Shown piece after piece: positions 3,003 through 43,905 of a DNA stretch of 43,950 nucleotides (its first letter is position 1; each line of letters starts with the position of its first letter). The notes beneath the pieces were generated by a model, which saw nothing but the letters and a program-made list of their open reading frames with translations, did no database searches and was not told where the DNA came from. Origin of the DNA: Candidatus Margulisiibacteriota bacterium (lineage in GTDB: Bacteria > Margulisbacteria > WOR-1 > JAHJIW01); NCBI GenBank assembly GCA_041645285.1, contig JBAZQH010000001.1, forward strand, positions 1 to 43,950, in the 5' to 3' direction. The translations under genes and the position numbers were made by a program.

Positions 3003-3254
3003 TTATTTGTTTTTCTTGTAGTACCCCTGAAATCCGCGTTCAAAGGCCTCCAAGGCGCAATCCAGGTCTGATTTTTGGCTGATATAACCGGTGCTGAATT
3101 CACGGCCTTCATGAAAAGTAATATTCCCGCCGGTCACAATGACCTCTTTCCGGTCATCGGAAATCCAGACATTGGCCGGACAAAAAAATCCTGCCGGAGA
3201 CGACTTTGGATCGGATAAATTGTAAGCCGGATTATCTAGTTCAATGATTGGCAT
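3003..3254 (-). CDS. small hypothetical protein (83 aa)
   Basis: The ATG at 3254 (MPIIELD...) is preceded by a GGAAAGGAAAA SD-like run. The longer ORF to 3338 has no SD. No recognisable domain. Confidence 0.45.
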   Translation of the reverse strand: MPIIELDNPAYNLSDPKSSPAGFFCPANVWISDDRKEVIVTGGNITFHEGREFSTGYISQKSDLDCALEAFERGFQGYYKKNK

Positions 3255-3347
3255 GCTGGATTTTCCTTTCCCCGTTTTTAGCGGGTTTTTTGGGACCTTC
3301 CGTTGTATATATCGGGTTAAATGGGCAAAAACTTGCATGATTGGCGC

Positions 3348-3376
3348 TTGAATTTGGATGATTTGCGTAGTAAAGT
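3348..3376 (+). promoter_or_regulatory. candidate sigma70-type promoter (TTGAAT-17 nt-TAAAGT)
   Basis: -35 TTGAAT is at 3348-3353 and -10 TAAAGT at 3371-3376, about 50 nt upstream of the 3428 CDS. Motif match only. Confidence 0.3.
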
Positions 3377-3427
3377 ATAAATACGCTTGGCGTTGATTTT
3401 GTATGATTTTTTCCCCGAGGAGGAGAA

Positions 3428-3952
3428 ATGATGAAAAGGGTTTTTATATGGGTTTGTTTGGGAATTTTAGTTTTTTGCCTGGCGGGTGGGGTCGGAGCTG
3501 CTGCCAAGGTCCAAAAAACTCCCGTTCCGGCGAGTAAAGCAGTACCGGAGTCGTCAATAATATTCAAGCCGGAGCGCCTGGGCGAATATAGGTTATTTAC
3601 TGCGTACGGTGGCGGGGCGGTGGCGGTGGGTTTGGGATACCTTTTCCCGGTTGAACGGGACTATGATGTTATATTGGACGCGGCTTATTACCTTGGCAAC
3701 CAATATTCTATTTTGACGGCAAAACTGGCCGCGGATGTCAAAATTGGGCAAGACCTGTATACCGGATTGAGCCTGGGCTGGGTCAGCTACTCACAAACCA
3801 TTGCCGATATTCCCGGCCTTTCCGGCAATACTGCCAGCGGCAGCCATATTGATGCGGGCATATTTTTAGGCAAGGAAATACGAGAGTGGAGAGTGCAGGC
3901 GGGCTACGGGACGGCCATGGGGCTAACCGGTGAACTATCCTATAAATTTTAA
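3428..3952 (+). CDS. secreted small beta-barrel-like outer membrane protein
   Basis: SD GAGGAGGAG lies just upstream. There is an N-terminal signal peptide (VCLGILVFCLAGGVGAAA), Gly/Tyr-rich alternating segments, and a C-terminal ...ELSYKF aromatic terminus typical of OM beta-barrels. Confidence 0.6.
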   Translation: MMKRVFIWVCLGILVFCLAGGVGAAAKVQKTPVPASKAVPESSIIFKPERLGEYRLFTAYGGGAVAVGLGYLFPVERDYDVILDAAYYLGNQYSILTAKLAADVKIGQDLYTGLSLGWVSYSQTIADIPGLSGNTASGSHIDAGIFLGKEIREWRVQAGYGTAMGLTGELSYKF

Positions 3953-3992
3953 TTTCCTAAAAAGTTAAGCAACTAAAAAGCTAATTACAACC

Positions 3993-4916
3993 ATGCTAAA
4001 ACATTTTATTTCAATTCATGAACTGACGCTTGCCGAAATCGAAAAGATTTTTAATCTGGCCGCGCGGCTAAAGAAAAAACCCCGACAGAGCATCTTAAAG
4101 GGGAAATCCCTGGCGTTGATTTTCGAAAAACCTTCCACCCGCACGCGCGTGTCTTTTGAGGTTGGCATGTTTGAGCTGGGAGGCACCACCATTCATTTGT
4201 CTCCCAATGCCGTCCAACTGGGGGTGCGGGAGTCAGTGGCGGATGTGGCCCGGACCCTGTCGCGTTATGTCCAGGGAGTGATGCTGCGCACCTTTGACCA
4301 CCATGCCCTGATTGAATTTGCGCGCTATTCCAGTGTTCCGGTCATTAACGGGCTTTCAGATGTATCGCATCCCTGCCAGGGGTTAGCGGATGTGTTTACG
4401 GTAATGGAAAAGAAAGGTGCCGGGAGTTTGAAAAACTTGAAAAAAGTAAAAATGGCGTATATTGGCGACGGCAATAACGTGTGCCATAGTTTGATGTTGG
4501 CGGCGGCAAAGGTGGGGATGAATCTGTCCGTAGCTACTCCTCCCGGGTTTGAGCCCCGGCCGGAAATTACCCGCCTGGCGCAAGCGGATGCCCGCGGCAG
4601 CGGCGCCAAAATTGAAATTATGAATGACCCCAAAAAAGCGGTGGAAAAAGCCGATGTAATTTATACGGATGTATGGGCCTCAATGGGACAGGAGGAAGAA
4701 GCCGCCAGCCGAAAGATTAAGTTTGCGGCTTTTCAGGTAAACCGGCGCTTGGTTGGTTTGGCCAAACCGGATGCCATTATCATGCATTGCTTGCCGGCAC
4801 ACCGCGGTGAGGAAATTACGGACGAGGTGATTGACGGGCCGAATTCGGTGGTTTTTGACCAGGCCGAAAATCGCCTGCATGTTCAGAAGGCAATTTTGGC
4901 AATACTTTTGAGGTGA
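3993..4916 (+). CDS. argF: ornithine carbamoyltransferase
   Basis: Motifs seen are STRTRVSFE (carbamoyl-phosphate site), SHPCQGLAD, DVWASMG and MHCLPAHRGEE. The 307-aa length fits. Confidence 0.95.
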   Translation: MLKHFISIHELTLAEIEKIFNLAARLKKKPRQSILKGKSLALIFEKPSTRTRVSFEVGMFELGGTTIHLSPNAVQLGVRESVADVARTLSRYVQGVMLRTFDHHALIEFARYSSVPVINGLSDVSHPCQGLADVFTVMEKKGAGSLKNLKKVKMAYIGDGNNVCHSLMLAAAKVGMNLSVATPPGFEPRPEITRLAQADARGSGAKIEIMNDPKKAVEKADVIYTDVWASMGQEEEAASRKIKFAAFQVNRRLVGLAKPDAIIMHCLPAHRGEEITDEVIDGPNSVVFDQAENRLHVQKAILAILLR

Positions 4917-13784: not shown

Positions 13785-15443
13785 ATGGCAGGAAGAATAA
13801 TTACCTTGGAAGGTTACAGGAAAACAGCTGATTTTACTAGGTTGACGGGCAGCTTAAGAAGGGACCACGCTACCATTGCAAGATTTTTAAGTCGTAAGCC
13901 ATCAGCAGGAAGAATTAGAGACATAGTTGCTATCCCTGACCAAATGGGGGGAAGATTTCCAAAGGAAACATATCGAGTTTTGCTATTCGTTGAAGGACGG
14001 GCAACCCCCTTTATTGGAACATTACCGGCAGGAATATCTGAAGGGCAAAGCGCAGCTCGATTAATGGGGACGGCTGAAGGTATGAGTTTAAAAGACAGTC
14101 ACACCCAAGCTCGTCAATTCTTGCAAGATACTTTAAAACCAAAGCTGGTTGGAAGAAATGTAGCAGAATTAGGGAGCATTGAAGCCGAGTTTAAATTGGC
14201 TTCTGATGAAGCCAGAGCGGCTAACCCCAGATTAGGCCCTTATGAAAACATGGGAGCGCAGAATAGTTTAGGCATTACCATTGCGATGGCTTATGCGATA
14301 GCTGATCTAGCTAACGTGCCAGTTACTTCGGTAATCAACTATTTCTATAATAAAGCGTTGCAAAGCAAAGGATATAGCGAATTTGAGCCAATTTCACTGC
14401 CTATGGTTCAAGGCGTCTTGGGAGATTGCGGTCGTCATGGATTGGCGCTGACTCTTGATCAGATGGCCGAAAGGGGAATATTAACTGCTGAAGGAAGAAG
14501 GGCCTTCCCTGTCCAATTAGCGAGTGATTTTTCTTTACCAGTCATCGCTCCCCAGGAAGCGTTAGCTCTTTACCGTCGCTTTGATACATTTGATGCTATG
14601 ATCGCGGCTGCCGAAAAAGTCAGTGCCGCTTATCTCAAACTTCTTAAAGGTGCGGTCCCGGAAGATTCCATCCATCGCGGAGCTGAATCTGGTTATACTT
14701 CCCAGCATATGACATCACTGCATACTGTCTTAACTTTGATGCGAAAAGCTTATGAACAAAGCGGAATGGAAGGCAGAGTAAGCAGTTCGCTCGATGTGGC
14801 TATGTCAGAACTTGTTTTAACGCCAGATGCAACTTCACTCAGGGATATTCTCTGCTTTGTCGGGCCAGAATTGGCTGATAATGCAACCGGGGTACTTCCT
14901 CTATCTGAAGCTTACGAGAGAATTGTTGCTATTGCCCGAGCATTTAATATGCCGATTGTTGAGGATTTGGCGCCTGAAGCCGATGCCATGGGTCAATTGT
15001 CCAGGGCAGACCAGATTGCGGCGATGGCGTTGGCAGGCAATCTGTTGGCAGATGCTGGGATTGCTGCGGTTGCAGATGATACGACCGTTGGTAATCCAGC
15101 TCTAGCTCAAGAATTAGTTGTTGACGGAAGAATTGCTGGGTGGATTTTATTAAAAGATACTCAATCCGGTTCGTTCTTGACCCTGGTGGACTTTGCGGCA
15201 ACTGGCAGAGCCAATGGTATAAGATTAAATAATTCTCATAGAGGGAACGCGGTTGCCGGGGAAAGATGGCCAGGACACCTTGCGGTTGGACTTGGAGCAG
15301 AGTCAGCAAAATTTACTCCTTGGGGAACCGGTCGTGGCGAAAAGATAGTAGCAATGAGAGAAATTGAGGCAATCTACGCATCTCTCGGGATAATGTTGCC
15401 ATTCTGGGGAAATCCAGCGCATACTGGATTATTTAAAAACTAG
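13785..15443 (+). CDS. highly divergent enolase-family protein (552 aa)
   Basis: A strong SD AGGAGG precedes the start. By-eye alignment to enolase gives PAGISEG (vs PSGASTG), GAESGY (vs GDEGGY), SLDVAMSE (vs AMDCAASE), IVEDLA (vs SIEDGL), AVADDTTVGNP (vs LVGDDLFVTN), ILLKDTQSGS (vs ILIKFNQIGS), NSHRG (vs SHRSGE) and ESAKF (vs GQIKTG). Confidence 0.7.
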   Translation: MAGRIITLEGYRKTADFTRLTGSLRRDHATIARFLSRKPSAGRIRDIVAIPDQMGGRFPKETYRVLLFVEGRATPFIGTLPAGISEGQSAARLMGTAEGMSLKDSHTQARQFLQDTLKPKLVGRNVAELGSIEAEFKLASDEARAANPRLGPYENMGAQNSLGITIAMAYAIADLANVPVTSVINYFYNKALQSKGYSEFEPISLPMVQGVLGDCGRHGLALTLDQMAERGILTAEGRRAFPVQLASDFSLPVIAPQEALALYRRFDTFDAMIAAAEKVSAAYLKLLKGAVPEDSIHRGAESGYTSQHMTSLHTVLTLMRKAYEQSGMEGRVSSSLDVAMSELVLTPDATSLRDILCFVGPELADNATGVLPLSEAYERIVAIARAFNMPIVEDLAPEADAMGQLSRADQIAAMALAGNLLADAGIAAVADDTTVGNPALAQELVVDGRIAGWILLKDTQSGSFLTLVDFAATGRANGIRLNNSHRGNAVAGERWPGHLAVGLGAESAKFTPWGTGRGEKIVAMREIEAIYASLGIMLPFWGNPAHTGLFKN

Positions 15444-16520: not shown

Positions 16521-17066
16521 ATGCCAGTTAATTTACCAAGAACGGTTGCATTAAGTGAGTTGAGAATTGCAAGTCAAAGGTGGAGGCCAACTCCTGGTAA
16601 AAGCGTATGCGTACGGCCGTGGGATATGCGCCGAGAGTTGCCGGGCCGGCTTCTAGAAATTGTGGGTGGGGTTGATTTAGGAATTTTTCCGATGGCAGGT
16701 CGAGATTGGGAGCATCTTGAACAGTTGCATGTGAAAGTGACCCCAAGGGTGACAGAAGATGAAAGGCTTTTGGATAACGTAGCTAGAGTTTTTGCCTGTT
16801 CACAGGTGTGGAGCATGTATGCTGATGCTATAGGGCGAATGAGAGAAGGACGAAGTAATGCGGCGATACAAATTGGGCGGGATCATTTTGTTTTGAAATA
16901 TGGTGAAAAGACGGTTTTGGATCAACAGTTTTGGTTTTTATCCATGTGCGCAGGCAATGAAGAGCTTGCCGTGGTTTCTGAGCGATGGTATGTACCAAGA
17001 GATAATCCGCTACAAGGGCTTGTCGAAACATTAGGTCGACACGGCGGCTGGAAAAAAGCTAAGTAA
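16521..17066 (+). CDS. hypothetical protein (181 aa, ORFan)
   Basis: The ORF has a GGGGG SD-like run 8 nt upstream. No recognisable motif. The 3' end overlaps the convergent 17059-18405 gene by 8 nt. Confidence 0.5.
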   Translation: MPVNLPRTVALSELRIASQRWRPTPGKSVCVRPWDMRRELPGRLLEIVGGVDLGIFPMAGRDWEHLEQLHVKVTPRVTEDERLLDNVARVFACSQVWSMYADAIGRMREGRSNAAIQIGRDHFVLKYGEKTVLDQQFWFLSMCAGNEELAVVSERWYVPRDNPLQGLVETLGRHGGWKKAK

Positions 17067-18405
17067 TTCCCAAATCCGTTGGTGCCCGCCCCAAAGATTT
17101 TAACAGTGCCAGCGTATCTTCAATTTTTTCTTCTAATGGGTCTTTAATGCCAGCTTTATCCGGATAAATTTCGTAATGCGGCTGATATTTTTTAGGAGTG
17201 CAGTTGATCATTAATGAGTTGGCGCCGGCGAGTAACCCCTGCTGTTGGCCTTCTTTGGGATTTAGCGTTTCCAGCGCGGTAGTTACCACAATTTTGGCAT
17301 TGGGATCAATGAAGCGGGTGGCCGCAATTACTTTCAGCGATAAATCCAGGTTACCAAACGCGGTGTTTTTTAGTGGGGTGGCGTGATGGGGGATGAGCGG
17401 GCCAAAAGTGTACATTTCGGCGTGGAGCTTTTTGGCTAATTCGATGTCGTTGATTAAATCGTCCGCGGTTTGGTTAGGCAATCCGATGATACTGCCGGTT
17501 AAAATCAAATATCCCAGCTTATAACAATGTTCAATTATTGCCAGGCGGTCGGCTAATTTTTTCCCCGGCCGCAGTTTTTCATAGAGTGCGGCATTGCTGG
17601 TTTCAAATCGCAAAAGGACCCCCCGTGCCCCGGCCTCAAATAGCCGCGTGTAAGTTTCGGGAGAGCGTTCGCCGATGCTGATAAATAATAAAACCGCGCA
17701 TTTTTCTTTGATTTTTTTCACAAGTTCGACTAACTTTTCGTCTGCGTACCAGGGATCTTCGCCGGATTGTAAAACCATGGCTTTAAAGCCGTATTTGTTG
17801 ACTGCCATGTCCATGGCCTCGACAATTTCGTCGATTTCCATTCGGTATCGTTTTATAGATTGGTTATCGTTTCGAATGCCGCAATACCAGCAGTTATTGA
17901 TGCAATAATTGGAAAATTCGATGATGCCGTGGACACAGCAGGCGTTGCCTAAGTGTTTTTGCCGCACAAAGTTGGCGGCGCGGTAAATGGCGTCCAACTC
18001 TTTGGGTTTTTGCGCATTTAATATGTACAGTAAGTCAGCGCGGCTTAAATTTGGCGCGCCGGTTTGGCCGTTAACGGCGGGTGAGGTAGTGGTCGCATCG
18101 CTTCCTACCGCGCGATTTAATAAATCAATAAATTCCTTCGAAAACCCTTCTTCGGCAAACCGGCGCTCTGAAATTTTTAAGTCAATTTTTTTGAGCTCGA
18201 AAAACAGGTCTTTCCAGGCCTCCAGGGTTTCCAGCGCCTCTTTTTCGGGCACGCGCGAAATTACGTAGCCGCCCTGCGCGTAAATATAATCGCCGATTTT
18301 AAGGTCGACAAATTCATTCAGCGCTTTCCGTTTTTCGCCAAAATATTCGACAATCACGGACTTATCTTTAATTTCTATAACTTTACCGGGGATGGCGTAG
18401 CACAT
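17059..18405 (-). CDS. HypC-like domain fused to a HydE/BioB-type radical SAM enzyme
   Basis: The N-terminus MCYAIPGKVIEI...GDYIYAQGGYVI matches the HypC/HupF signature (Cys2, MC-x-x-IPG). It is followed by a radical SAM core, SNYCINNCWYCGIRNDN (CX3CX2C), as in HydE/biotin-synthase-family enzymes. Confidence 0.85.
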   Translation of the reverse strand: MCYAIPGKVIEIKDKSVIVEYFGEKRKALNEFVDLKIGDYIYAQGGYVISRVPEKEALETLEAWKDLFFELKKIDLKISERRFAEEGFSKEFIDLLNRAVGSDATTTSPAVNGQTGAPNLSRADLLYILNAQKPKELDAIYRAANFVRQKHLGNACCVHGIIEFSNYCINNCWYCGIRNDNQSIKRYRMEIDEIVEAMDMAVNKYGFKAMVLQSGEDPWYADEKLVELVKKIKEKCAVLLFISIGERSPETYTRLFEAGARGVLLRFETSNAALYEKLRPGKKLADRLAIIEHCYKLGYLILTGSIIGLPNQTADDLINDIELAKKLHAEMYTFGPLIPHHATPLKNTAFGNLDLSLKVIAATRFIDPNAKIVVTTALETLNPKEGQQQGLLAGANSLMINCTPKKYQPHYEIYPDKAGIKDPLEEKIEDTLALLKSLGRAPTDLGIT

Positions 18406-32196: not shown

Positions 32197-32226
32197 ATTA
32201 TATAAGGGAAAAACCAGGGTTGTCAA
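32197..32226 (-). promoter_or_regulatory. near-consensus sigma70-type promoter for the hydrogenase operon
   Basis: On the - strand the sequence reads TTGACA (32226-32221), an 18-nt spacer, then TATAAT (32202-32197). This is about 50 nt upstream of the TTG start at 32148. Confidence 0.5.
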
Positions 32227-32286: not shown

Positions 32287-35200
32287 ATGTCGAACGGCAA
32301 AACATATATGCCAAGCAGAAAAATTATGCATTCTCTTGGAAAAGCAAGGCGTAGAGTTGGAATAGTGTCTCAAGCGGCAACTGGCATTTACTCTACGCTG
32401 GGGTATGTTAACCGTCGGTCAATTTCCATAAGTTTACGCGAGCAGACCGCCAAGTTTTTGCCGGGGCAAAGAACCCAACTGGCCTTACTTTTGGTTCAAC
32501 ATCAAATTCTTCAGCCAACGGCTGCGCCAATAGAATTAACTAAAATCGGGGAAGCGGATTGTTGCAGAGCTATAACACGCAGAGATATCGATAGCTTTTT
32601 AATGGCCTTTAACGCAGAGTTTAGTGGTGTGTTTGAAGGATATTTCAGGAGGGAGCAGTTTAGTTTTCTGTCTTGTGCGGAGCGTGCGGGGGCGGGAGAA
32701 GAACGGACTTTGGTTGCGATCGCAGAGGTTGCTCCCGTGGCAGGGTCAATTGATTTGCGCGCAGAAGTATTGGAAGTATTGAGGACCGTTAACCGGCCGA
32801 TTACAGTGGCGGGTATTTGTGAGGAAATAAATGATATTCATGCCCAACGCAAGGCAGGTAAGGTTGGCGATGCCGAGATTGGAGTTTGTATTGGCCAATT
32901 GCTTCCAGCGGGAACATTGTCCTCTACGGTTGGGCCACGTGGGCGTGATAAACGATTTTTTATAACTGCCAGAACGGCAGAGCTGTTAGCCGAAAACACA
33001 ATTTTCAGATACGAGGACACGCGCTTAACGAGTTTTGTTTTCCGCGGAGATATTGAGGCGTTGGCCAAGCTCGGAAATATTTATCGTTTGTTAGGCCGGG
33101 ACGGGGAAAATGTTTTTTTGTCTGAAGATAAATTTAGGAGCCAGAGAGTTAATCTGGCAGAGGTTTTTTCGGGCGCTGGGCAAACCATGGCGGTTTATCG
33201 GGAAGATGCCAGAGATTTGGCAGAAAAAGGATATTTAATTGAAGGGCGCCATAATGATGGTCTTACGTTTTGCTACGTTGATGCGGCGGCGCAGTATGAG
33301 CACCGCGGATTAATTTTCAACGCGTTCTTTTTTGATTATTTGATTGTTAGCCCAGAAATGGATGCCGCCGGACAGGGACACTGCCGGGCACGCCTGGCGC
33401 GCGCTTTTGAGGTTGGTTTGGCGGCAGAGCTGGCCGAGGATGAAGAAACCACGGTGAATGAATATTTATATGAGGCCTGGACGGTGATCCGCAACGGGGC
33501 CAAAGAAAAAGCCGTGGTGATGGCGTTGGTTAAGCGTGCGGAGGTAGCAACCGATTTACTGCATGAGAATTTATTTACCACTATCGAAATTCGGGATTAT
33601 AGAGTGGGTTTAGAGCGGTTGGCATTAAGGATGGCCTTTCCAATGTGTTATATGTGTAACGTGTCGTGGTCATTACAGAACTTTTTTCACGATGTTTATG
33701 ACCAAACCGATAATTATGAGGTTTTTCTGCTTTTGTTGGTGAGAAAAGCAAATGTGGTGCGTCGGCTGGCGTTTTTGGAAAGCACGCCGGATTCCCTAAA
33801 TGTTTGCCGGGAAATGGAATTAGTTTATGCGCCGCTGGCGAGAAGTAAGGGATTAATTTATTTAGCCAATAATATGCTGGATTGTGTGGCTAAATTAAAG
33901 GACCAAACTGGATACAGTTCTGCGAAAGCGGCCATGGAGGCCGAGATTGGTATGGAATTTGACCAAGCCCGGCAGCATGCGCGTCTGGTTGCCAGAAGAA
34001 TCCATTCGGAAGTTCCTTTGCAACTCAGAAGCATGGTTAAGATATTAGCTACCCGGGTTAAAGAAGTAAGCGCTTTTGTTGGTAAGGTGAGCGCGCTGGG
34101 GGAGGAGGATTATCTTGATTTAAACGGAGTCCGGTTTGAAGCAAAAGCGCCGGAGCTAGTCGTTTCAGATGTACCCTTAACGGCAGAAAAAAAACTTGCG
34201 GCAAACATAGCTGTAGCGGACAAGTTGGCGGCAGAATTAGTGAGGCGTTTTGATTTAGTACCAGAAGATGAACTGCCCGAAGGGACAGCCCCGATTGTAA
34301 ATTACTTGAACACACCAAATGAAAGAAGTTGGAATGGATGGAGAGGATATTTTTATGATCCATTGCAACCCGAAGGGAATGAACGCCGCATTTTTTCTGT
34401 GCAGATTTTTACTCCCGAAATGACATTAGCGGACAGGCACGGGGAAGCCGCCCATTGGATATATAAAACTAAACGTGCGGCTAAAGCAGATCATCAGGCA
34501 CGTATGACAAAGAGAAAATTTATGCAGCCGCTTTTTGATTCGGTTTCCCCTAATGCATACAACGGAGATCCGGAACACGATTACTATGTTGATCAGCGGA
34601 TAGCGCGCCAGCACAAAAGGGTTTTAGTTTGGCTGCCCGACCAGCCATTTAGCGCAAAGGATTTTGCTTTTCCCGAATCGGGGGAACTGCTCATGTTGCG
34701 CATGGGGCAGGAAGAAACGGTTGAGGATGCCGCGGCTTTTCGGTCTTGGAGAAGCATGTTTGGTTCAACTTATGGATATACGGAAGTATATACTTTTGGA
34801 TTGCGTGAAGACGGCAAAATTGGGATTAGGCCGTGGCAGGGGGCGGCGCGGGCGGCAGTGGGGGCAATTTCTCCAAATGGCAGTCTTTTAGTATTTATGG
34901 GTGGGGTATTAGACGACAAAGCTTATCAAAGATTACACAGTAAGGTAAAGACGGTACGCGCACGCCTGTTTGTTGAAAGGAAGCTTAAGCATGCAGACCC
35001 AGAGCAATTAGCTCTAGCGGGGGTCAAGCAATCCGCCGGGCAGTTAATTTATACGAATGCTGATCTAATGCAGGTGTTACGGGCAACGGAGTTATTGGAT
35101 GAATCGGAGATATATCAAGCTATCGCCTTGGGCATATTAACAGAAGATGAAATCAGGAAGATAACGGGGGCTTTGGGAATAACCATTACGGTTCAATCAC

Positions 35201-35748
35201 TGCCGCAAGAAAAAACAGAAATTACGGTTACCGCCCCAGACAAAATCGGGTTGTTAAGTCAAATTTTAGGGCAGCTTTCACCCGATTTACAGGTGTTAGC
35301 GGCCAGTTCGGGCGCCGATAAGCAAGCCAGGGGAGCTTCGCCGTCAACCAGCGTATTGACGGTTAGGCCCAGACCTGGGATAGGGATGCCGCAAATAAAT
35401 AAAAATAAATTATCCCAGAGTTTGGAGGCATTTGGTAGAGTGAAAAATGGTGGCGGCGAAAACCTTACTCAACTAAAGGCAATTCTTATCCCTAGCGCAG
35501 GGATAAAAATGCCAAGGCATTGGAGTATGTTGCGAGAAATGTTGGGAATAGCGCAGGCATTCCAGTTGAATATTTTAGAATTAACCTTGCCGGATCTTTT
35601 AGAAGAAAAAGGCAAGAAAACTGGCGAGGTACTGTTTGAATGGAGCGGCGATCATCCGTTTTTAGCCGATGACCTTGCGGAAATTTCGAGTGCTTTAGCG
35701 GGTATTATGCCCGAAACGGTTAATTTTATGATTGCAGAAGTAGCTTAA
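32287..35748 (+). CDS. giant divergent RelA/SpoT-homolog (long RSH architecture with ~430-aa N-terminal extension)
   Basis: By-eye matches to long RSH proteins: an HD-region remnant FFHDVYDQTD and VYAPLARSKGLIYLANNMLD (vs IYAPLAHRLGI..K.ELED); synthetase motifs TRVKEVSAFVGK, LDLNGVRF, NYLNTPNE...NGWRGY and SVQIFTPEMTLADRHGEAAHWIYK; a TGS-like VLVWLPDQ...; and an ACT-like ITVTAPDKIGLLSQILGQL. The start codon is uncertain: there is no SD at 32287, and alternative ATGs lie at 32308 and 32326. Confidence 0.7.
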   Translation: MSNGKTYMPSRKIMHSLGKARRRVGIVSQAATGIYSTLGYVNRRSISISLREQTAKFLPGQRTQLALLLVQHQILQPTAAPIELTKIGEADCCRAITRRDIDSFLMAFNAEFSGVFEGYFRREQFSFLSCAERAGAGEERTLVAIAEVAPVAGSIDLRAEVLEVLRTVNRPITVAGICEEINDIHAQRKAGKVGDAEIGVCIGQLLPAGTLSSTVGPRGRDKRFFITARTAELLAENTIFRYEDTRLTSFVFRGDIEALAKLGNIYRLLGRDGENVFLSEDKFRSQRVNLAEVFSGAGQTMAVYREDARDLAEKGYLIEGRHNDGLTFCYVDAAAQYEHRGLIFNAFFFDYLIVSPEMDAAGQGHCRARLARAFEVGLAAELAEDEETTVNEYLYEAWTVIRNGAKEKAVVMALVKRAEVATDLLHENLFTTIEIRDYRVGLERLALRMAFPMCYMCNVSWSLQNFFHDVYDQTDNYEVFLLLLVRKANVVRRLAFLESTPDSLNVCREMELVYAPLARSKGLIYLANNMLDCVAKLKDQTGYSSAKAAMEAEIGMEFDQARQHARLVARRIHSEVPLQLRSMVKILATRVKEVSAFVGKVSALGEEDYLDLNGVRFEAKAPELVVSDVPLTAEKKLAANIAVADKLAAELVRRFDLVPEDELPEGTAPIVNYLNTPNERSWNGWRGYFYDPLQPEGNERRIFSVQIFTPEMTLADRHGEAAHWIYKTKRAAKADHQARMTKRKFMQPLFDSVSPNAYNGDPEHDYYVDQRIARQHKRVLVWLPDQPFSAKDFAFPESGELLMLRMGQEETVEDAAAFRSWRSMFGSTYGYTEVYTFGLREDGKIGIRPWQGAARAAVGAISPNGSLLVFMGGVLDDKAYQRLHSKVKTVRARLFVERKLKHADPEQLALAGVKQSAGQLIYTNADLMQVLRATELLDESEIYQAIALGILTEDEIRKITGALGITITVQSLPQEKTEITVTAPDKIGLLSQILGQLSPDLQVLAASSGADKQARGASPSTSVLTVRPRPGIGMPQINKNKLSQSLEAFGRVKNGGGENLTQLKAILIPSAGIKMPRHWSMLREMLGIAQAFQLNILELTLPDLLEEKGKKTGEVLFEWSGDHPFLADDLAEISSALAGIMPETVNFMIAEVA

Positions 35749-37051
35749 TTAATTGTTTTTCGGCATTAGTTAACTGTTTTTTTCTTCGTTGCAGGGCGGC
35801 CGCGCTCATGCGAAGGGCTTTTTCGATCTCAAACTTTTCCTTCATCCCAAAAGAAAACGGCGGCACATACTTGGGCGGCATGCCTTCAAAGATATTGCAG
35901 AAAATTGAGATTACGGTTCCGGTATTAATCATGGTGCCAATGGCGGTCTTGGTATGATCGCCGATCAGGCATCCCATAAATTGCTCTTTGGTATCAACCA
36001 GTTGTCCGTCGTTCCACATTTTAATGTTTCCGTAATTGTTTTTGAGGTTGCTGTTGGTGGTGCCGGCGCCCAGGTTAACCCATTCGCATATATAAGAATG
36101 GCCCAAAAACCCATAATGCGCTTTATTGGAATATCCGTGGATAATTGAATTGGTTACTTCCCCGTGTACTTTACAACTTGGTCCGATTGAAGTTCCGCTG
36201 CGGATTTGTGCGCCTAAGATTGTACTGTTTTCCCCGATGTAAGCTGGCCCTTCAATATAAGTAAGCGGCATTATATGCGCACCTGCGTCAATAATTACCG
36301 GTCCGCGGCGCGCGTCAATTACCACTTGCGCTTCAATGGTTGCGCCCTGGCCGATTATCGTGTTTTCCCGTTTGTAAAAGGTAACCGTTTTGTGGATTGC
36401 GGCCTTTTTCTTGGCACCCTTTTTGTTTATCCTCTTGTAGTCGGCCTCAATTTGGGCGGAGTTTTCTTTGATCAACTGCCACGGATAATCAATGAGTTTT
36501 ACGTCGATTTTGGTGGTTTTAATTTGCGGCAATTTGCGCGCTGGTTGCTTTGATTGTTTTTGCGGAGAAATACCGAGACCTTTCCCTGTGCTTAACCTTG
36601 CGGCCACTACGGTGCCGTTGCAAACAAAAGTTTCGTCCGGGCCGTCCAACGGGATTTTTTTAGAAAGGTTGGGCTCGGCCAGGATGCGGCCGTTGATAAA
36701 TAAACATGCGCCTGCTAATGCGTTTGCGGCGGCTTCGAGTGACGTGGCAACTGCGGTGGTATTAGGGAGAGTCGTGCCGTTAAACTCAATAACCTTACAC
36801 TCCGGATGTCTTTCCTGGACCGTTTCCTTAAGCATGCCGCGGCAAGCTAAAATAACTTTTGGTCCAGTTTTTTTTTCGGTGGCGGATTGTGTGGCGGGTG
36901 CGCCATATTCAAGCAGAATTTTATCCAGTAGGGATAAAATTCCGCATTTTACTTCAAAGCTGGCGCGCAGAAGGGTTATGGGCTCTAGTTTTTTGTAGCC
37001 GGCATCTTCAAAAATGCAGAGCGAAGTTTTGGGCGCTTTTTGTTTTTTCAT
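35726..37051 (-). CDS. sugar nucleotidyl transferase-like protein with left-handed beta-helix (GlmU-like, non-GlmU)
   Basis: A nucleotidyltransferase-like N-terminus (LCIFEDAGYKKLEPITLLR) plus C-terminal hexapeptide repeats (IGENSTILGAQIRSGTSIGPSCKVHGEVTNSIIHG...NLGAGTTNSNLKNNYG). Confidence 0.8.
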   Translation of the reverse strand: MKKQKAPKTSLCIFEDAGYKKLEPITLLRASFEVKCGILSLLDKILLEYGAPATQSATEKKTGPKVILACRGMLKETVQERHPECKVIEFNGTTLPNTTAVATSLEAAANALAGACLFINGRILAEPNLSKKIPLDGPDETFVCNGTVVAARLSTGKGLGISPQKQSKQPARKLPQIKTTKIDVKLIDYPWQLIKENSAQIEADYKRINKKGAKKKAAIHKTVTFYKRENTIIGQGATIEAQVVIDARRGPVIIDAGAHIMPLTYIEGPAYIGENSTILGAQIRSGTSIGPSCKVHGEVTNSIIHGYSNKAHYGFLGHSYICEWVNLGAGTTNSNLKNNYGNIKMWNDGQLVDTKEQFMGCLIGDHTKTAIGTMINTGTVISIFCNIFEGMPPKYVPPFSFGMKEKFEIEKALRMSAAALQRRKKQLTNAEKQLIKLLLQS

Positions 37052-39501: not shown

Positions 39502-40446
39502 ATGAATAAGGTAAAAAGCTTAGCCACAAAAGATCTCCTCGGTTTGAAGGACCTCTCTTTAGAAGACCTCAATTTAATTTTCCAAACCGCTGAATCAATG
39601 AAAGAAATATTTAACCGTCCCATCCGGCGCGCGCCGGCCCTCAACGGCAAGACCATCTTCACCCTGTTTTATGAAAACAGCACGCGCACCCGCTCCTCAT
39701 TTGAAATGGCGGCCAAAATGCTGTCGGCCACCACCGGTTCAATCAGCGCGGCCACCAGCAGTGCCAAAAAAGGTGAAACCTTAATCGATACGGTAAAAAA
39801 TATTGAAGTGATGGGGATCGATGCCATCGTTATTCGTCACTCCATGGCGGGGGCTCCGCACCTCATTGCCAAAAATCTCAAGGCCTCGGTGATTAATGCG
39901 GGGGATGGATGCAACGAGCATCCGACGCAAGGTTTGCTGGACATTTATACGATGCTGGAAAAAAGGGGAACGGTTAAAGGTAAAACTGTGTTGATTGTGG
40001 GGGACATTGCGCACTCACGTGTAGCGCGCTCAAACATCTGGGGACTTACCAAATTGGGCGCGCACGTTATTGTGTGCGGCCCGCCCACCTTAATGCCGGC
40101 GGGGATTGAACAAATGGGGGTGGAAGTTTCTTCCAATTTGGATGACGTCATCGGCGAAGCCGATTTTATCAATGTGCTTCGCATCCAGTTAGAAAGGCAG
40201 GAAAAGGGGCTCTTCCCTTCAAAGGAAGAATATACCCGCCTGTTTGGGATTGATGCCGCGCGTATGCAAAAAGCCCAAAAAGACGTAGTAATAATGCATC
40301 CCGGGCCGATTAACCGCGGAGTGGAGTTGTCGAGCGAAGTTGCCGACGGGCCTTACAACGTAATTTTGGATCAAGTAAAAAATGGGGTGGCTATTAGGAT
40401 GGCGGTGTTGTTCCTCTTGTTGGGCGGGAAAAACGGCGGGGAGTAA
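39502..40446 (+). CDS. pyrB: aspartate carbamoyltransferase catalytic subunit
   Basis: Motifs STRTRSSFE, HPTQGLLD and MHPGPINRGVE are present. The 314-aa length fits. No pyrI follows. Confidence 0.95.
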   Translation: MNKVKSLATKDLLGLKDLSLEDLNLIFQTAESMKEIFNRPIRRAPALNGKTIFTLFYENSTRTRSSFEMAAKMLSATTGSISAATSSAKKGETLIDTVKNIEVMGIDAIVIRHSMAGAPHLIAKNLKASVINAGDGCNEHPTQGLLDIYTMLEKRGTVKGKTVLIVGDIAHSRVARSNIWGLTKLGAHVIVCGPPTLMPAGIEQMGVEVSSNLDDVIGEADFINVLRIQLERQEKGLFPSKEEYTRLFGIDAARMQKAQKDVVIMHPGPINRGVELSSEVADGPYNVILDQVKNGVAIRMAVLFLLLGGKNGGE

Positions 40447-41146: not shown

Positions 41147-42250
41147 TTACAGATACCCCTCCACCAGCATGTCCTCCCCAATTTGCCGATAATCAACCGC
41201 CTTTAATTTTACGCTGGCGATCATGGAGCTGGCGCCTTTTCCTTCAAACCAGGTTTTGGCACCGGCGCCGCCAATCAATTTCGGTGCAATGAATACCATG
41301 ATTTTATCCACAATTTTTTCTTCCAGGGCATTGGTAAACACTTCACTGCCGCCTTCAATCAGGACGCTGGTGATTTTTCGCTTGCCTAGGATTGTCATCA
41401 ATGCTTTGAGGTTGATTTTGCCTGATTTTGCTTTGACCAGCATGACTTCGACGCCGCGTTTTTCCAGCGCCAAAATTTTATCTTTGGGGGTGGTGCGGGT
41501 GCAAGCTAGTAGGGTGGGGGCCGTTCTGGTATCCAACACTTTTGCGTTCAGCGGAATTTTGCAATTTGCGTCCAAAACAATCCTCAGCGGATTTTTGATT
41601 TGTTTGACCAGGCGCACGTTCAGCTGGGGATCATCTTTTAGGACCGTATTGATGCCAACCATTACTGCATCCACCTGGTTGCGCAGAGTATGGGTTAATT
41701 TCCTGGACTCTAAATTGCTAATCCAGCGGGAATCCCCGGCATGGGTTGCAATTTTTCCGTCGAGAGAGGCCGCGGCTTTTAAGATTACAAATGGTAGACC
41801 GGTAGTGATATGTTTAATGAAAAATTCGTTTAGTTTTTTGGCATCCGGCGCCAGCAGGCCCACCACAACTTTAATTTTTGCTTTTTTAAGAGTAGCAAAA
41901 CCTTTTCCGCTAACCAGCGGGTTGGGGTCCTGCATGGCCGCCACTATTTTTTTTATTTTGGCGCGGATAATATTTTCGGTGCACGGCGGGTTGTTGCCAA
42001 AATGATTACAGGGCTCGAGGTTGATATAAAGAGTGGCGCCGGCGGCGCGCTGCCCGGCTTTTTCAATTGCCCAGGTTTCGGCGTGCGGGGTGGTGAAGGG
42101 GCCGTGGTAACCCTCTGCAATAACTTTGTCGTTTTTAACCAGAACTGCTCCTACCATGGGGTCAGGGGAAGTAATGCCGCGCTGGGTTGCGGCCAGTTCT
42201 AGTGCTCGCTGCATGAAAATTTGGTCAGGGTTGAGTTTCTTCATTTTCAC
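41147..42250 (-). CDS. ribD: bifunctional riboflavin biosynthesis deaminase/reductase
   Basis: Deaminase zinc motifs HAETWAI and LEPCNHFGNNPPC, followed by the reductase domain (...AASLDGKIA...). 367 aa. Confidence 0.93.
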   Translation of the reverse strand: MKMKKLNPDQIFMQRALELAATQRGITSPDPMVGAVLVKNDKVIAEGYHGPFTTPHAETWAIEKAGQRAAGATLYINLEPCNHFGNNPPCTENIIRAKIKKIVAAMQDPNPLVSGKGFATLKKAKIKVVVGLLAPDAKKLNEFFIKHITTGLPFVILKAAASLDGKIATHAGDSRWISNLESRKLTHTLRNQVDAVMVGINTVLKDDPQLNVRLVKQIKNPLRIVLDANCKIPLNAKVLDTRTAPTLLACTRTTPKDKILALEKRGVEVMLVKAKSGKINLKALMTILGKRKITSVLIEGGSEVFTNALEEKIVDKIMVFIAPKLIGGAGAKTWFEGKGASSMIASVKLKAVDYRQIGEDMLVEGYL

Positions 42251-42860
42251 TGTTTTGGCCAGAGGGACGATCGTTTGCGTTTACTGCAATCACTACCTCA
42301 ATGGAGCTGCCGGAAGCCACTTCTTCCCCGGCAACCGGAGATTGCGATATGACGGTGCCGTCGGCAAATTCGGTGGAGTTAACGTTATCAACCGTTCCGA
42401 TACATAACCCGACGGCGGTTAAGACCACTTCAATTTGCTGGGAATCCTTGCCGATCAGGTTGGGGACAGTTACGCTTTTTTGCCCCATGCTGACCACCAA
42501 ATTAATGGAGCGTCCTTGTTTTACGCTGCGGCCGGGCTCTGGTTTCTGATAAACCACTTGGTTTTCTGGAATTCCTGGCTCGTAGGTTTTGTCGATTACC
42601 ACGGTGCTTAAATTCATTTGCTGGGAAATCTTTGCGGCTTCTTCGGCCGCCAGGCCGACCAGGTACGGCGTTTTGGTTTCGGGAATGGTCGCGCCGTAAA
42701 TCACGGCAAAATAAATTACCGCCAGAGGGATGAGCATTAAAAATAGTAAAACCAGGATAACCCGGAACGGGTGCTTGATTTTTACGGAAATGACCACTAG
42801 CCCGGCCAACGCCAGGTAGATGATACAGCAAAGCAGATAAATTAATAAATAATTTGCCAT
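42225..42860 (-). CDS. membrane-anchored PASTA-domain protein (two PASTA repeats)
   Basis: Two N-terminal TM helices, then PASTA-like units: PYLVGLAAEEAAKISQQMNL...VVYQKPEPGRSVKQGRSINLVV and VPNLIGKDSQQIEVVLTAVGL...VISQSPVAGEEVASGSSIEVVI. Confidence 0.8.
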   Translation of the reverse strand: MANYLLIYLLCCIIYLALAGLVVISVKIKHPFRVILVLLFLMLIPLAVIYFAVIYGATIPETKTPYLVGLAAEEAAKISQQMNLSTVVIDKTYEPGIPENQVVYQKPEPGRSVKQGRSINLVVSMGQKSVTVPNLIGKDSQQIEVVLTAVGLCIGTVDNVNSTEFADGTVISQSPVAGEEVASGSSIEVVIAVNANDRPSGQNSENEETQP

Positions 42861-42864
42861 TTTT

Positions 42865-43905
42865 TTAAGGTTTGATCAGTGTCATGATTGCCGCCAGAAT
42901 TAATCCGGCCAAAATGGTTAAGAGCAAAATTTTAAAAAACCACCCCCGGAGCCGGGCGGTAAAATCTTGCGGCTGGTTTTTTTCGGGCAAACGGATGTGT
43001 TCTCTGCCGGGTTCTTTTTCTCTGGGTTGGGGGCGGTCAGAAGTATCCAGGCAAATTTCCGGGATATCCGGCAGGTTGGTTTTGGTAACAATTCCCTTGT
43101 TTTTTAAGCTGGCAGCCAAATCATCAATTGAAGCAAACCGCAGTAGCGGGTCGCGCTCCAGGGCCTTGAGGACCAGGTCGTCAATGTTTTTGGGAATGGA
43201 GGGGTTAAACGTGGAGGGCGGCAGGGGCGTTGACTGGATCTTTTGCAGGGCAACCTGCAGGGAAATTTTTTCTTTTGGCAGGTCAAAGGGGAGGCGGCCG
43301 GCCAGCATTGCGTAAAGTACCAGCCCGGCGCCGTAAATATCAGATGACGGGGCGCAGTCCGCGCCCGCGATTTCTTCCGGGGACAAGTAAGTTGCGTCTT
43401 CGGTGACGTAGACGGCTTTTTGCGGCAGGGCTTCCTTGATGGATTTTTCTACCACAAAGTCGGCAACTTTGACAATTTTTTGAGTGGAAATCAGGATGTT
43501 GTTGGGGCAAAGGGCGCCATGGAGGATGCCGTTTTTGTGGGCAATGGACAGGGCGGCGCAGACATCGAGCATGATTTCAATGGCTTTGTCCAAATCCAGC
43601 GGATGGTGAGTTTTTAGTATTTCACTTAAAGATTGGCCTTCGATGTACTCTCTCACATAATAATACCCTTGCCAGCCATAGTCGCCGTCAATAATTTTGG
43701 TGATGTTATGGTGGTGAATTAAAGAAAAATCCTTGATTTTTTGGCGGATGATTTTGATGAGGGAGCTGTTTAAGGTGGCGCGTTTGTAAATTTTAATGAT
43801 GACCGGTTTTTCGTTGGATAGGTAGGTGCCTTTGTAAGTAATCCGGTAGGGATTATCGGAAATTTGCACGCCAATTTTGTAGCGGCTTTTTAAGAAGCGC
43901 TCCAT
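42865..43905 (-). CDS. Hanks-type Ser/Thr kinase-like protein, predicted pseudokinase, C-terminal TM anchor
   Basis: The fold aligns to PknB (VIIKIY lysine, YLSPEE, DIYGAGLVLYAMLAGRLPF). However, the catalytic loop reads HGALCPNN instead of HRDLKPxN, DFG reads DFV, and the Gly-rich loop is absent. The C-terminal TM is ILLLTILAGLILAAIMTLI. Confidence 0.82.
   Translation of the reverse strand: MERFLKSRYKIGVQISDNPYRITYKGTYLSNEKPVIIKIYKRATLNSSLIKIIRQKIKDFSLIHHHNITKIIDGDYGWQGYYYVREYIEGQSLSEILKTHHPLDLDKAIEIMLDVCAALSIAHKNGILHGALCPNNILISTQKIVKVADFVVEKSIKEALPQKAVYVTEDATYLSPEEIAGADCAPSSDIYGAGLVLYAMLAGRLPFDLPKEKISLQVALQKIQSTPLPPSTFNPSIPKNIDDLVLKALERDPLLRFASIDDLAASLKNKGIVTKTNLPDIPEICLDTSDRPQPREKEPGREHIRLPEKNQPQDFTARLRGWFFKILLLTILAGLILAAIMTLIKP

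Follow-up and report, generated by a model that had tools for sequence, protein, structure and literature searches.

A long, lineage-specific RelA/SpoT derivative of Margulisiibacteriota with a large N-terminal extension and degenerate hydrolase and synthetase motifs

The stretch of DNA analysed here (the window, 43,950 bp) is the entire contig JBAZQH010000001.1 of a Candidatus Margulisiibacteriota bacterium. At positions 32287 to 35748 its forward strand contains an open reading frame (ORF) for a protein of 1153 aa, which a preliminary description, made from the sequence alone, had reported as a divergent RelA/SpoT homolog (RSH) with altered catalytic motifs; the ORF is present as described. 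Two alternative starts lie further inside the frame, M8 at position 32308 and M14 at 32326, and NCBI uses the former, listing a 1146-aa hypothetical protein from a Ca. Margulisiibacteriota metagenome-assembled genome (MAG). The bacterial stringent response has long RSH enzymes as its central switches, and Margulisiibacteriota are uncultured, hydrogen-metabolising relatives of Cyanobacteria. We find that the protein belongs to a family of long RSH derivatives in which both the hydrolase and the synthetase sites have lost canonical residues. The parts of the protein, several of them delimited in an AlphaFold2 (AF2) model, are the following.

32287..35748, + strand: whole ORF, lineage-specific long-RSH-derived protein, 1153 aa
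32359..32676, + strand: N-terminal helical and β-hairpin domain, aa ~25-130, of no known family (AF2 secondary structure)
32752..32964, + strand: winged-helix-like domain, aa 156-226, including VLEVLRTVNRPITVAGICEEI (AF2 model)
32965..33300, + strand: helix/β-hairpin repeat region, aa 227-338, four helix-strand-strand units (AF2 model)
33301..33966, + strand: pseudo-hydrolase (HD-fold) domain, aa 339-560, colinear with SpoT residues 2-~190
33967..34539, + strand: synthetase-fold domain, aa 561-751 (profile, hhalign and residue alignments)
34141..34197, + strand: 19-aa insertion PELVVSDVPLTAEKKLAAN, aa 619-637, found only in the window protein and absent from 14/14 homologs; low model confidence
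34396..34398, + strand: codon of S704, at the Glu position of the E-x-Q-x-R-T strand (residue alignments)
34540..34914, + strand: linker or 'Core'-like segment, aa 752-776, and TGS-like β-grasp region, aa 777-876 (AF2 model, Foldseek)
34915..35172, + strand: helical domain, aa 877-962 (second stretch of the HMMER match, hhalign)
35173..35745, + strand: two ACT/RRM-like β-α-β-β-α(-β) modules, aa 963-1050 and 1051-1153 (AF2 topology)

Taken alone, the window protein stays below the thresholds of the domain databases. It scores 16.6 bits against RelA_SpoT (PF04607; cutoff 27, aa 682-729), 21.9 bits against NCBIfam TIGR00691 (spoT_relA; cutoff 499.2) and 15.3 against 947 for PRK11092; all its matches to PDB sequences have E>0.03, including two weak matches to Rel, which are colinear. 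A word-index homology search, run with either the sequence or the alignment, returned the window protein itself and nothing else. An exhaustive HMMER search over 1.84 billion representatives gave 26 matches, a few of them fragments, and identified 14 further clusters (P0002-P0015) homologous to the window protein at 28-35% identity. Most members of this long family are ~1045-1180 aa in length, several being shorter or truncated at contig ends; every member with a taxon name comes from a MAG of candidate division WOR-1 or of Margulisbacteria/Margulisiibacteriota, and a few are automatically labelled 'RelA/SpoT domain-containing protein' in UniRef. The alignment of the 15 sequences (A1), from which the family profile, the AF2 model and the residue counts given below are derived, contains 17 columns that are invariant and 28 that are nearly so.

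With this family in hand the relationship to RSH enzymes is clear. RelA_SpoT is matched by 15/15 members (best E=4.8e-10) and HD_4, weakly, by 4/15. The 15-sequence profile, compared with PDB sequences by HMMER, matches B. subtilis Rel, E. coli RelA, RelSeq and others with E=1.9e-16 to 1e-9 over Rel residues ~136-364, and hhalign of the family against E. coli SpoT (98.5% probability, E=1.6e-15) aligns query residues 339-751 with SpoT 2-364. In tblastn searches several orthologs match SpoT/RelA directly, with E-values down to 1.7e-12, the window copy being among the hardest to recognise. The AF2 model has a pLDDT of 81.5 and a pTM of 0.67 (an AlphaFold run on the single sequence, with pLDDT 34, was unusable), and Foldseek ranks full-length SpoT of A. 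baumannii highest (7qpr, ~860 aligned columns, E=4e-17); ribosome-bound RelA, Rel of B. subtilis and some 20 structures of Rel N-terminal domains come next. From the profile, hhalign and Foldseek matches we therefore regard RSH ancestry as established; the catalytic N-terminal half, HD fold plus synthetase fold, is complete. The homology claimed in the preliminary description is thereby borne out, and so is its survival of a profile alignment, which recovers the HD and synthetase half.

The HD half is, judged by its sequence, a pseudo-hydrolase in which each metal-binding or catalytic position has been replaced. In the profile alignments the position of the first metal-binding His is E393 in the window protein and Asp or Ser in other members, the H-D pair corresponds to K416-R417, the E-D dyad falls in a gap, and K487, a Lys that is invariant across the family, stands where the ADRxHN(MR) helix has its Asp. 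The preliminary description was right that this site is degenerate, since none of the HD, ED, His and Asp ligands survives or is restored by profile alignment, and right also in equating VRKANVVRRL with the ADRLHNMR helix. It erred in taking HDVYDQTD (aa 468-475) for the HD-x-x-ED-T motif, the true HD position being K416-R417. We reject this assignment: the alignments put HDVYDQTD after the ENFRKM helix, directly behind an invariant S-L-Q-N-F that aligns with 'AENFRKM' of Rel/SpoT, H468 is variable in the family, and D469 is not conserved. Read as an HD motif, it would also leave 18 aa before the ADRLHNMR-like helix, as against a spacing of ~67 aa in RelSeq. The pseudo-HD region is the most conserved of the family, with 49 columns at 80% or more.

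The synthetase-fold region follows with 42 such columns, compared with 4-16 in each of the regions outside this core. It keeps the ATP motif R-x-K-x-x-x-S-x-x-x-K (R590, the invariant K592, S596 and K600), the D-x-x-G-x-R motif (D611, the Mg-binding Asp, also invariant, with G614 and R616), and Q706, T709, H723, W724 and K727; across the family K592, D611, W682, T709, H723 and K727 do not vary. The retention of AAHW-x-YK (here AAHWIYK) had been noted before and is correct. What has been lost lies in the E-x-Q-x-R-T strand, which reads SVQIFT in the window protein. The position of its Glu is occupied by Ser in 13/15 members (S704 in the window protein), by His in 1/15 and by Ala in 1/15, and Glu occurs in 0/15; the same position is Glu in E. 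coli SpoT (E319, invariant in alignment A2) and RelA, in RelSeq (E323), and in the more distant matches P0020-26 considered below. The Arg of the motif is F708 in the window protein and Leu in most members. This Glu is reported to be essential in characterised RSH synthetases: the variants RelSeq E323Q, B. subtilis RelQ E139V and RelP E154V are reportedly inactive. The replacements of Glu and Arg had been read correctly at the outset, and a recheck with gaps placed by the profile alignments restores neither these two residues nor the HD/ED residues, so that the protein is not an ordinary Rel.

No motif in the protein varies less than the acceptor loop, whose family consensus is P-N-x-N-G-W-x-G-W-R-G-Y, the base-stacking Tyr of Rel having become the invariant Trp W682. 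In the window copy it reads N672-Y-L-N-T-P-N-E-R-S-W682-N-G-W-R, as against D-Y-I-x-x-P-K-x-N-G-Y-Q-S-x-H, the Lys and His not being kept. The correspondence of NYLNTPNE to DYIxxPK, proposed earlier, holds; the insertion then postulated inside the motif is absent from the alignment. The window copy has two further deviations, namely N672 where 12/15 members have the Asp of D-Y-I, and R680-S681 where the family has N-G. A similarity to phage baseplate/PVC gp65 (aa 611-653, E=0.08-0.3) falls in the 19-aa insertion that only the window protein carries, and we dismiss it as chance.

Upstream of the RSH core, the large novel N-terminal region of the preliminary description is real. Its length had been put at about 430 aa; RSH homology in the hhalign alignment begins at ~aa 339, which leaves ~338 aa. 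In the AF2 model a disordered linker separates the domain at aa ~25-130 from the winged-helix-like domain, whose predicted topology is three helices and a hairpin (helices 157-166, 174-187 and 195-205, hairpin 211-226). Foldseek finds weak matches to Fur and ScpB (E=0.008-0.15), given without aligned ranges, and we infer that they belong to aa 156-226 of the model. The earlier guess of a winged helix at aa 161-181 agrees with this modelled topology and with the Fur/ScpB matches, whereas the sequence matches are not significant (E=0.12 to the Hop2 winged helix; E=0.069, in a single member, to HTH_20). Repeat similarity within the helix/hairpin region is weak in the window protein (best z=2.1); P0006 and P0008 have one extra helix/hairpin repeat of ~53 aa, aligned to query aa ~253-279. 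The N-terminal family profile gave nothing significant against PDB and Pfam. On the model, the winged-helix/repeat region is a candidate binder of nucleic acid or protein.

Downstream of the core, the mean substitution score of the family peaks in the linker at aa 752-776. The helical domain ends in L-DE-E---AIALG, which matches the Rel/SpoT helical-domain motif, as had been suspected for the ELLDESEIYQAIALG helix; a weak second stretch of the HMMER match aligns this domain with B. subtilis Rel 465-549, and hhalign matches it to SpoT with E=0.018. The first ACT-like module contains 'PDKIGLL', similar to 'DRSGLL' of RelA, and the ACT-like region has weak hhalign matches (E=0.02-0.3) and an ACT_4 match with E=0.14 in one member. 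Altogether, the hhalign pieces against SpoT in the C-terminal half are weak (E=0.018-0.3), but in the expected order. The C-terminal family profile has no significant match in PDB or Pfam, to TGS or ACT or to anything else, and the 15-member alignment of this half contains no invariant Cys that would fit a CC/Zn-finger domain. The TGS-like and ACT-like domains of the preliminary description are thus seen in the AF2 model and the Foldseek alignment, without significant support from sequence profiles; we treat the TGS-like domain and the two ACT-like domains as structure-based predictions.

The gene is flanked by the following features.

35726..37051, - strand: convergent NTP_transf_4/hexapeptide gene, overlapping the 3' end of the RSH-like gene by 23 nt
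32197..32226, - strand: perfect sigma-70 consensus, TTGACA-18-TATAAT (12/12), in the ~140-bp divergent intergenic region

The 23-nt overlap had been counted correctly, and in orthologous loci the convergent overlap is 6-33 nt. The NTP_transf_4/hexapeptide gene, ackA, apbE and a divergent gene with the ornithine carbamoyltransferase (OTCase) fold are syntenic in all related loci, and this shared downstream synteny makes the RSH-like genes positional orthologs in 12/12 other loci (L001-L007 and L016-L020). The upstream genes vary among loci; in the window they comprise an Fe-S/flavin/molybdopterin-like oxidoreductase and a hydrogenase/Mrp-like operon, and the sigma-70 consensus faces this side (Fer4_22/FAD-NAD/molybdopterin-like oxidoreductase and hydrogenase-like operon), away from the RSH-like gene. 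Between loci, ackA and the OTCase-like gene are ~70% identical and the RSH-like protein ~30%, similar to apbE; RSH-like ORFs of more than 1000 codons have stayed intact among lineages that share no more than ~70% identity in ackA. Nucleotide identity between P0005 (L020) and its L002 cluster-mate is 99.9%, and all other family pairs, at ~30% identity, are saturated at synonymous sites, so that dN/dS is not usable.

Codon usage of the gene is unusual, as the preliminary description had said: AGA/AGG account for 43% of its Arg codons, where most genes of the contig have 0-29%, and the GC content at third codon positions (GC3) is 0.44, against ~0.55 for the contig. Likewise, no Shine-Dalgarno (SD) sequence precedes any of the three candidate starts, although this is also true of about a third of the contig genes. 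The gene being a positional ortholog across the phylum, horizontal transfer is an unlikely source of the odd codons, and low expression or relaxed codon selection is the more likely one.

Further divergent RSHs, so far undescribed, emerged from the HMMER search, in the form of six distant matches (P0020-24 and P0026, E=5.6e-8 to 1e-3) that are genuine RelA_SpoT proteins by Pfam, most of them with HD_4; of the proteins scoring as true RelA_SpoT they are the nearest to the long family. P0026, from Omnitrophota, groups with P0021. P0020 and P0024 exemplify a second, short type of RSH of ~520-560 aa with a degenerate HD domain and a synthetase that keeps the Glu ('EIQIMT'), encoded in a conserved hisG-RSH-panD-rseC-rnf locus.

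L010, 6001-7608: short RSH gene
L011, 8778-10469: short RSH gene

The N-terminal ~70-100 residues are common to P0020/P0024 and the long family (tblastn of P0020 residues 14-85 against window positions 32359-32577, E=4.5e-5; L011 RSH residues 1-97 against L001, E=8.6e-7). The P0020-24 and P0021/P0026 groups resemble the long family in a 'GM-y--A--yL' insertion between the HD and synthetase domains, and P0020-P0024 also in the G-W-x-G acceptor loop and in the loss of the E-x-Q-x-R-T Arg. Unlike the long family, P0020-26 retain the catalytic Glu (within E-I-Q-I-M-T in the short type), and P0020-24 are without the winged-helix/repeat region and the entire C-terminal half; some of the latter have AATW-YN in place of AAHW-YK. 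The hisG-RSH-panD-rnf arrangement likewise differs from the locus of the long family. The HisG encoded beside the short RSH is 79-87% identical to named Margulisiibacteriota/WOR-1/Saganbacteria HisG, and the FemAB and Mur-ligase genes next to the short RSH in L011 are 56% and 45% identical to the adjacent pair of such genes in the window. Contig and sample identifiers gave no match that would place the long family and the short Glu-retaining RSH in one genome. Since a short type with Glu exists in the phylum, the long form need not be the synthetase of the lineage. In the WOR-1 MAGs examined, the position adjacent to hisG holds, instead of the short RSH, a gene for a protein of 559 aa resembling phosphoribosyl pyrophosphate (PRPP) synthetase; in L012 it lies at 2516-4195 (- strand), divergent from hisG, and has Pribosyltran_N/Pribosyl_synth domains. 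The usual PRPP synthetase is ~240 aa shorter.

With Rel, RelA and SpoT the long family shares the order of HD and synthetase domains, colinear with SpoT 2-364, a top structural match to full-length SpoT, the YAPLA...G helix, the R-x-K, D-x-x-G-x-R, Q-x-x-T and AAHW-YK motifs, and the helical-domain motif before the C-terminal modules. It differs from them in the extra ~338-aa N-terminal region, in lacking the HD/ED residues and the Glu and Arg of E-x-Q-x-R-T, and in a C-terminal half that is unrecognisable by profiles, in which two modelled ACT-like modules replace the zinc-finger domain (ZFD) and ACT domain of the canonical HD-SYNTH-TGS-helical-ZFD-ACT/RRM order (SYNTH, synthetase domain). 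Small alarmone synthetases (SAS) and their toxic forms (toxSAS) are single-domain proteins, the toxSAS having an adjacent antitoxin, in contrast to the 1153-aa multidomain window protein, and SAS and CapRel structures are only weak, partial matches to it. The neighbours of the RSH-like gene are the oxidoreductase operon and the convergent hexapeptide transferase gene, a setting of conserved housekeeping synteny without a toxSAS-type antitoxin arrangement.

Among long RSHs, RelA[hS] offers a parallel on the hydrolase side: it keeps a pseudo-hydrolase HD fold without catalytic residues, presumably in an allosteric or regulatory role (PMC3153485; PMC9974481). Its conserved, catalytically dead HD fold is like that of the long family; its synthetase site, unlike ours, is complete and includes the Glu. 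The converse case is Moraxellaceae SpoT (A. baumannii, 7qpr), a hydrolase-only long RSH that retains the synthetase fold as a non-catalytic regulatory module (PMC9974481). There the ATP/GDP-coordinating residues and the equivalents of D272 and Q347 are substituted and the HD domain is active, whereas the long family keeps those residues and lacks only the Glu and Arg, and its HD domain is dead. RshA-D and divRel[HS] are lineage-specific, long-branch long RSHs, RshB reportedly having a strongly diverged HD domain (Atkinson et al. 2011; PMC3153485). The consulted passages of that survey describe them in Actinobacteria, Bacteroidetes, Bacilli and delta-proteobacteria, with no mention of Margulisiibacteriota, of an N-terminal winged-helix extension or of loss of the synthetase Glu. 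Within the collection of papers searched, none joins Margulisbacteria and ppGpp. Loss of one activity is already known among long RSHs (RelA, Moraxellaceae SpoT, RshA-D/divRel[HS]); we found no described long RSH that combines an inactive HD domain, a synthetase without Glu, and an N-terminal winged-helix/repeat extension of ~338 aa.

The reading that we prefer, and to which we give an even chance, is that the window protein is a nucleotide-binding pseudo-enzyme or sensor derived from Rel, probably a sensor of the alarm signal and not its maker. No part of the protein is better conserved than the degenerate core and the ORFs have stayed intact, which indicates purifying selection, presumably on a function other than classical catalysis. 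The core would keep nucleotide binding (ATP, GTP/GDP or alarmone) and would not synthesise (p)ppGpp at a useful rate; it would act as a ligand-sensing or allosteric module, much as the pseudo-HD domain does in RelA and the pseudo-SYNTH domain in Moraxellaceae SpoT. Such a module would be coupled on one side to the winged helix and helix-hairpin repeats, and on the other to the very diverged TGS-like, helical and twofold ACT-like C-terminus derived from a long-RSH ancestor. Several observations pull the other way. The RelTt residues R249, D272, R277, Y329 and Q347 have substituted equivalents in the pseudo-SYNTH domain of SpoT from A. baumannii (PMC9974481). In the window protein the equivalents of all five are kept, so that its synthetase site is much less eroded than that classical pseudo-SYNTH. 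Ser704, a conserved replacement of the Glu, could in principle ligate Mg through its hydroxyl, and the near-invariant G-W-x-G-W-R-G-Y loop looks like the result of selection for a specific substrate or ligand, which fits an active enzyme equally well. The domain assignments at both termini, moreover, come from one AF2 model built on 15 sequences.

The main rival view, possible though in our judgement rather doubtful, is that the protein is an active pyrophosphokinase on a long branch, either the (p)ppGpp synthetase of its lineage or an enzyme with a changed acceptor. Metal binding would then fall to Ser704 and D611 and acceptor binding to the G-W-x-G-W-R-G-Y loop. Changes of acceptor have precedents in the toxSAS tRNA pyrophosphokinases (CapRel, so annotated, is among the Foldseek matches) and in Tas1, a (p)ppApp synthetase. 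Conservation in nearly all 15 members of R-x-K...S...K, D611, G614/R616, Q706, T709 and H723-W-x-x-K727 agrees with activity, as do the prevalence of Ser at the Glu position and the invariance of the acceptor loop; D272 and Q347, both catalytic according to Tamman et al. (PMC9974481), have kept equivalents. A canonical rel/spoT is absent from the 122 kb of the window and syntenic loci, a very small sample. What speaks against activity is the Glu, present in every other RSH examined (alignment A2) and missing in all members of the family, together with the further changes of the window copy, Asp to Asn at D-Y-I and N-G to R-S in the G-loop. The alternative drawn in the preliminary description, a regulatory pseudo-enzyme or a long-branch Rel, is upheld insofar as the protein is an RSH derivative with both sites degenerate; of its two halves the first, a dead enzyme, is the likelier.

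It is improbable, in our estimate, that the core is a structural or scaffolding relic that binds no ligand, leaving function to the N- and C-terminal domains, for instance in a factor associated with DNA, RNA or the ribosome. It is true that neither canonical active site is complete, that the low-GC3 codon usage would fit low expression, and that the protein evolves fast in comparison with its ackA and OTCase-like neighbours; but the residues expected to contact phosphate, Mg and base (K592, D611, W682, T709, H723, K727) remain invariant, and conservation is higher in the core than in the appended domains, a preservation of the ligand pocket that a relic would not lead one to expect. Hardly any weight is left for a mis-called or decaying gene. 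The missing SD, the atypical codons and the purely hypothetical annotation might be taken to hint at a pseudogene or an annotation artefact, but the 1153 codons are intact, the family counts 15 full- or near-full-length homolog clusters with orthologs at every other locus compared, the alignment has its invariant and nearly invariant columns, the model scores are as given above, and many contig genes equally lack an SD; the conservation data effectively refute this reading.

In the usual account of RSH evolution, Rel splits into forms that have lost one activity, RelA being without hydrolysis and some SpoT without synthesis. We suggest, tentatively, that the family of the window protein may be the first long RSH to have given up both classical activities and reused the pocket as a nucleotide receptor, for instance for (p)ppGpp made by another enzyme, coupled to the winged-helix/repeat module; the Rel scaffold would then have become a regulator that responds to an alarmone or nucleotide. 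As a variant of the same idea, a Ser-containing active site may transfer pyrophosphate to a new acceptor. If true, this would add a possible 'receptor' state, or new chemistry, to the scheme of single losses, and it bears on alarmone signalling in Margulisiibacteriota. The window protein is at present annotated as 'hypothetical' and lies below the Pfam and NCBIfam thresholds; a family profile would permit its proper annotation.

Some other genes of the window deserve a brief record. The ORF at 13785-15443 (+ strand, 552 aa), which has no Pfam match, shows the most atypical codon usage on the contig, with AGA/AGG at 68% of Arg codons and a GC3 of 0.36; it has a strong SD (AGGAGG) and may be foreign or fast-evolving. 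By the hydrogenase/Mrp-like cluster, an ORF of 448 aa at 17059-18405 (- strand) joins an N-terminal HupF/HypC domain to a radical SAM domain, a fusion not previously known to us. There are two carbamoyltransferase-fold genes, at 3993-4916 and 39502-40446 (both + strand): one stands directly upstream of argG/argH-like genes (argininosuccinate synthase and lyase, by Pfam), and the other, possibly pyrB, belongs to the synteny block adjacent to the RSH-like gene and is ~70% identical across loci. At 42225-43905 (- strand), a Ser/Thr protein kinase gene (346 aa) adjoins a PASTA-domain gene (211 aa) as a separate ORF; this pair, in place of one PknB-like protein, may reflect a genuine split or else a MAG frameshift.

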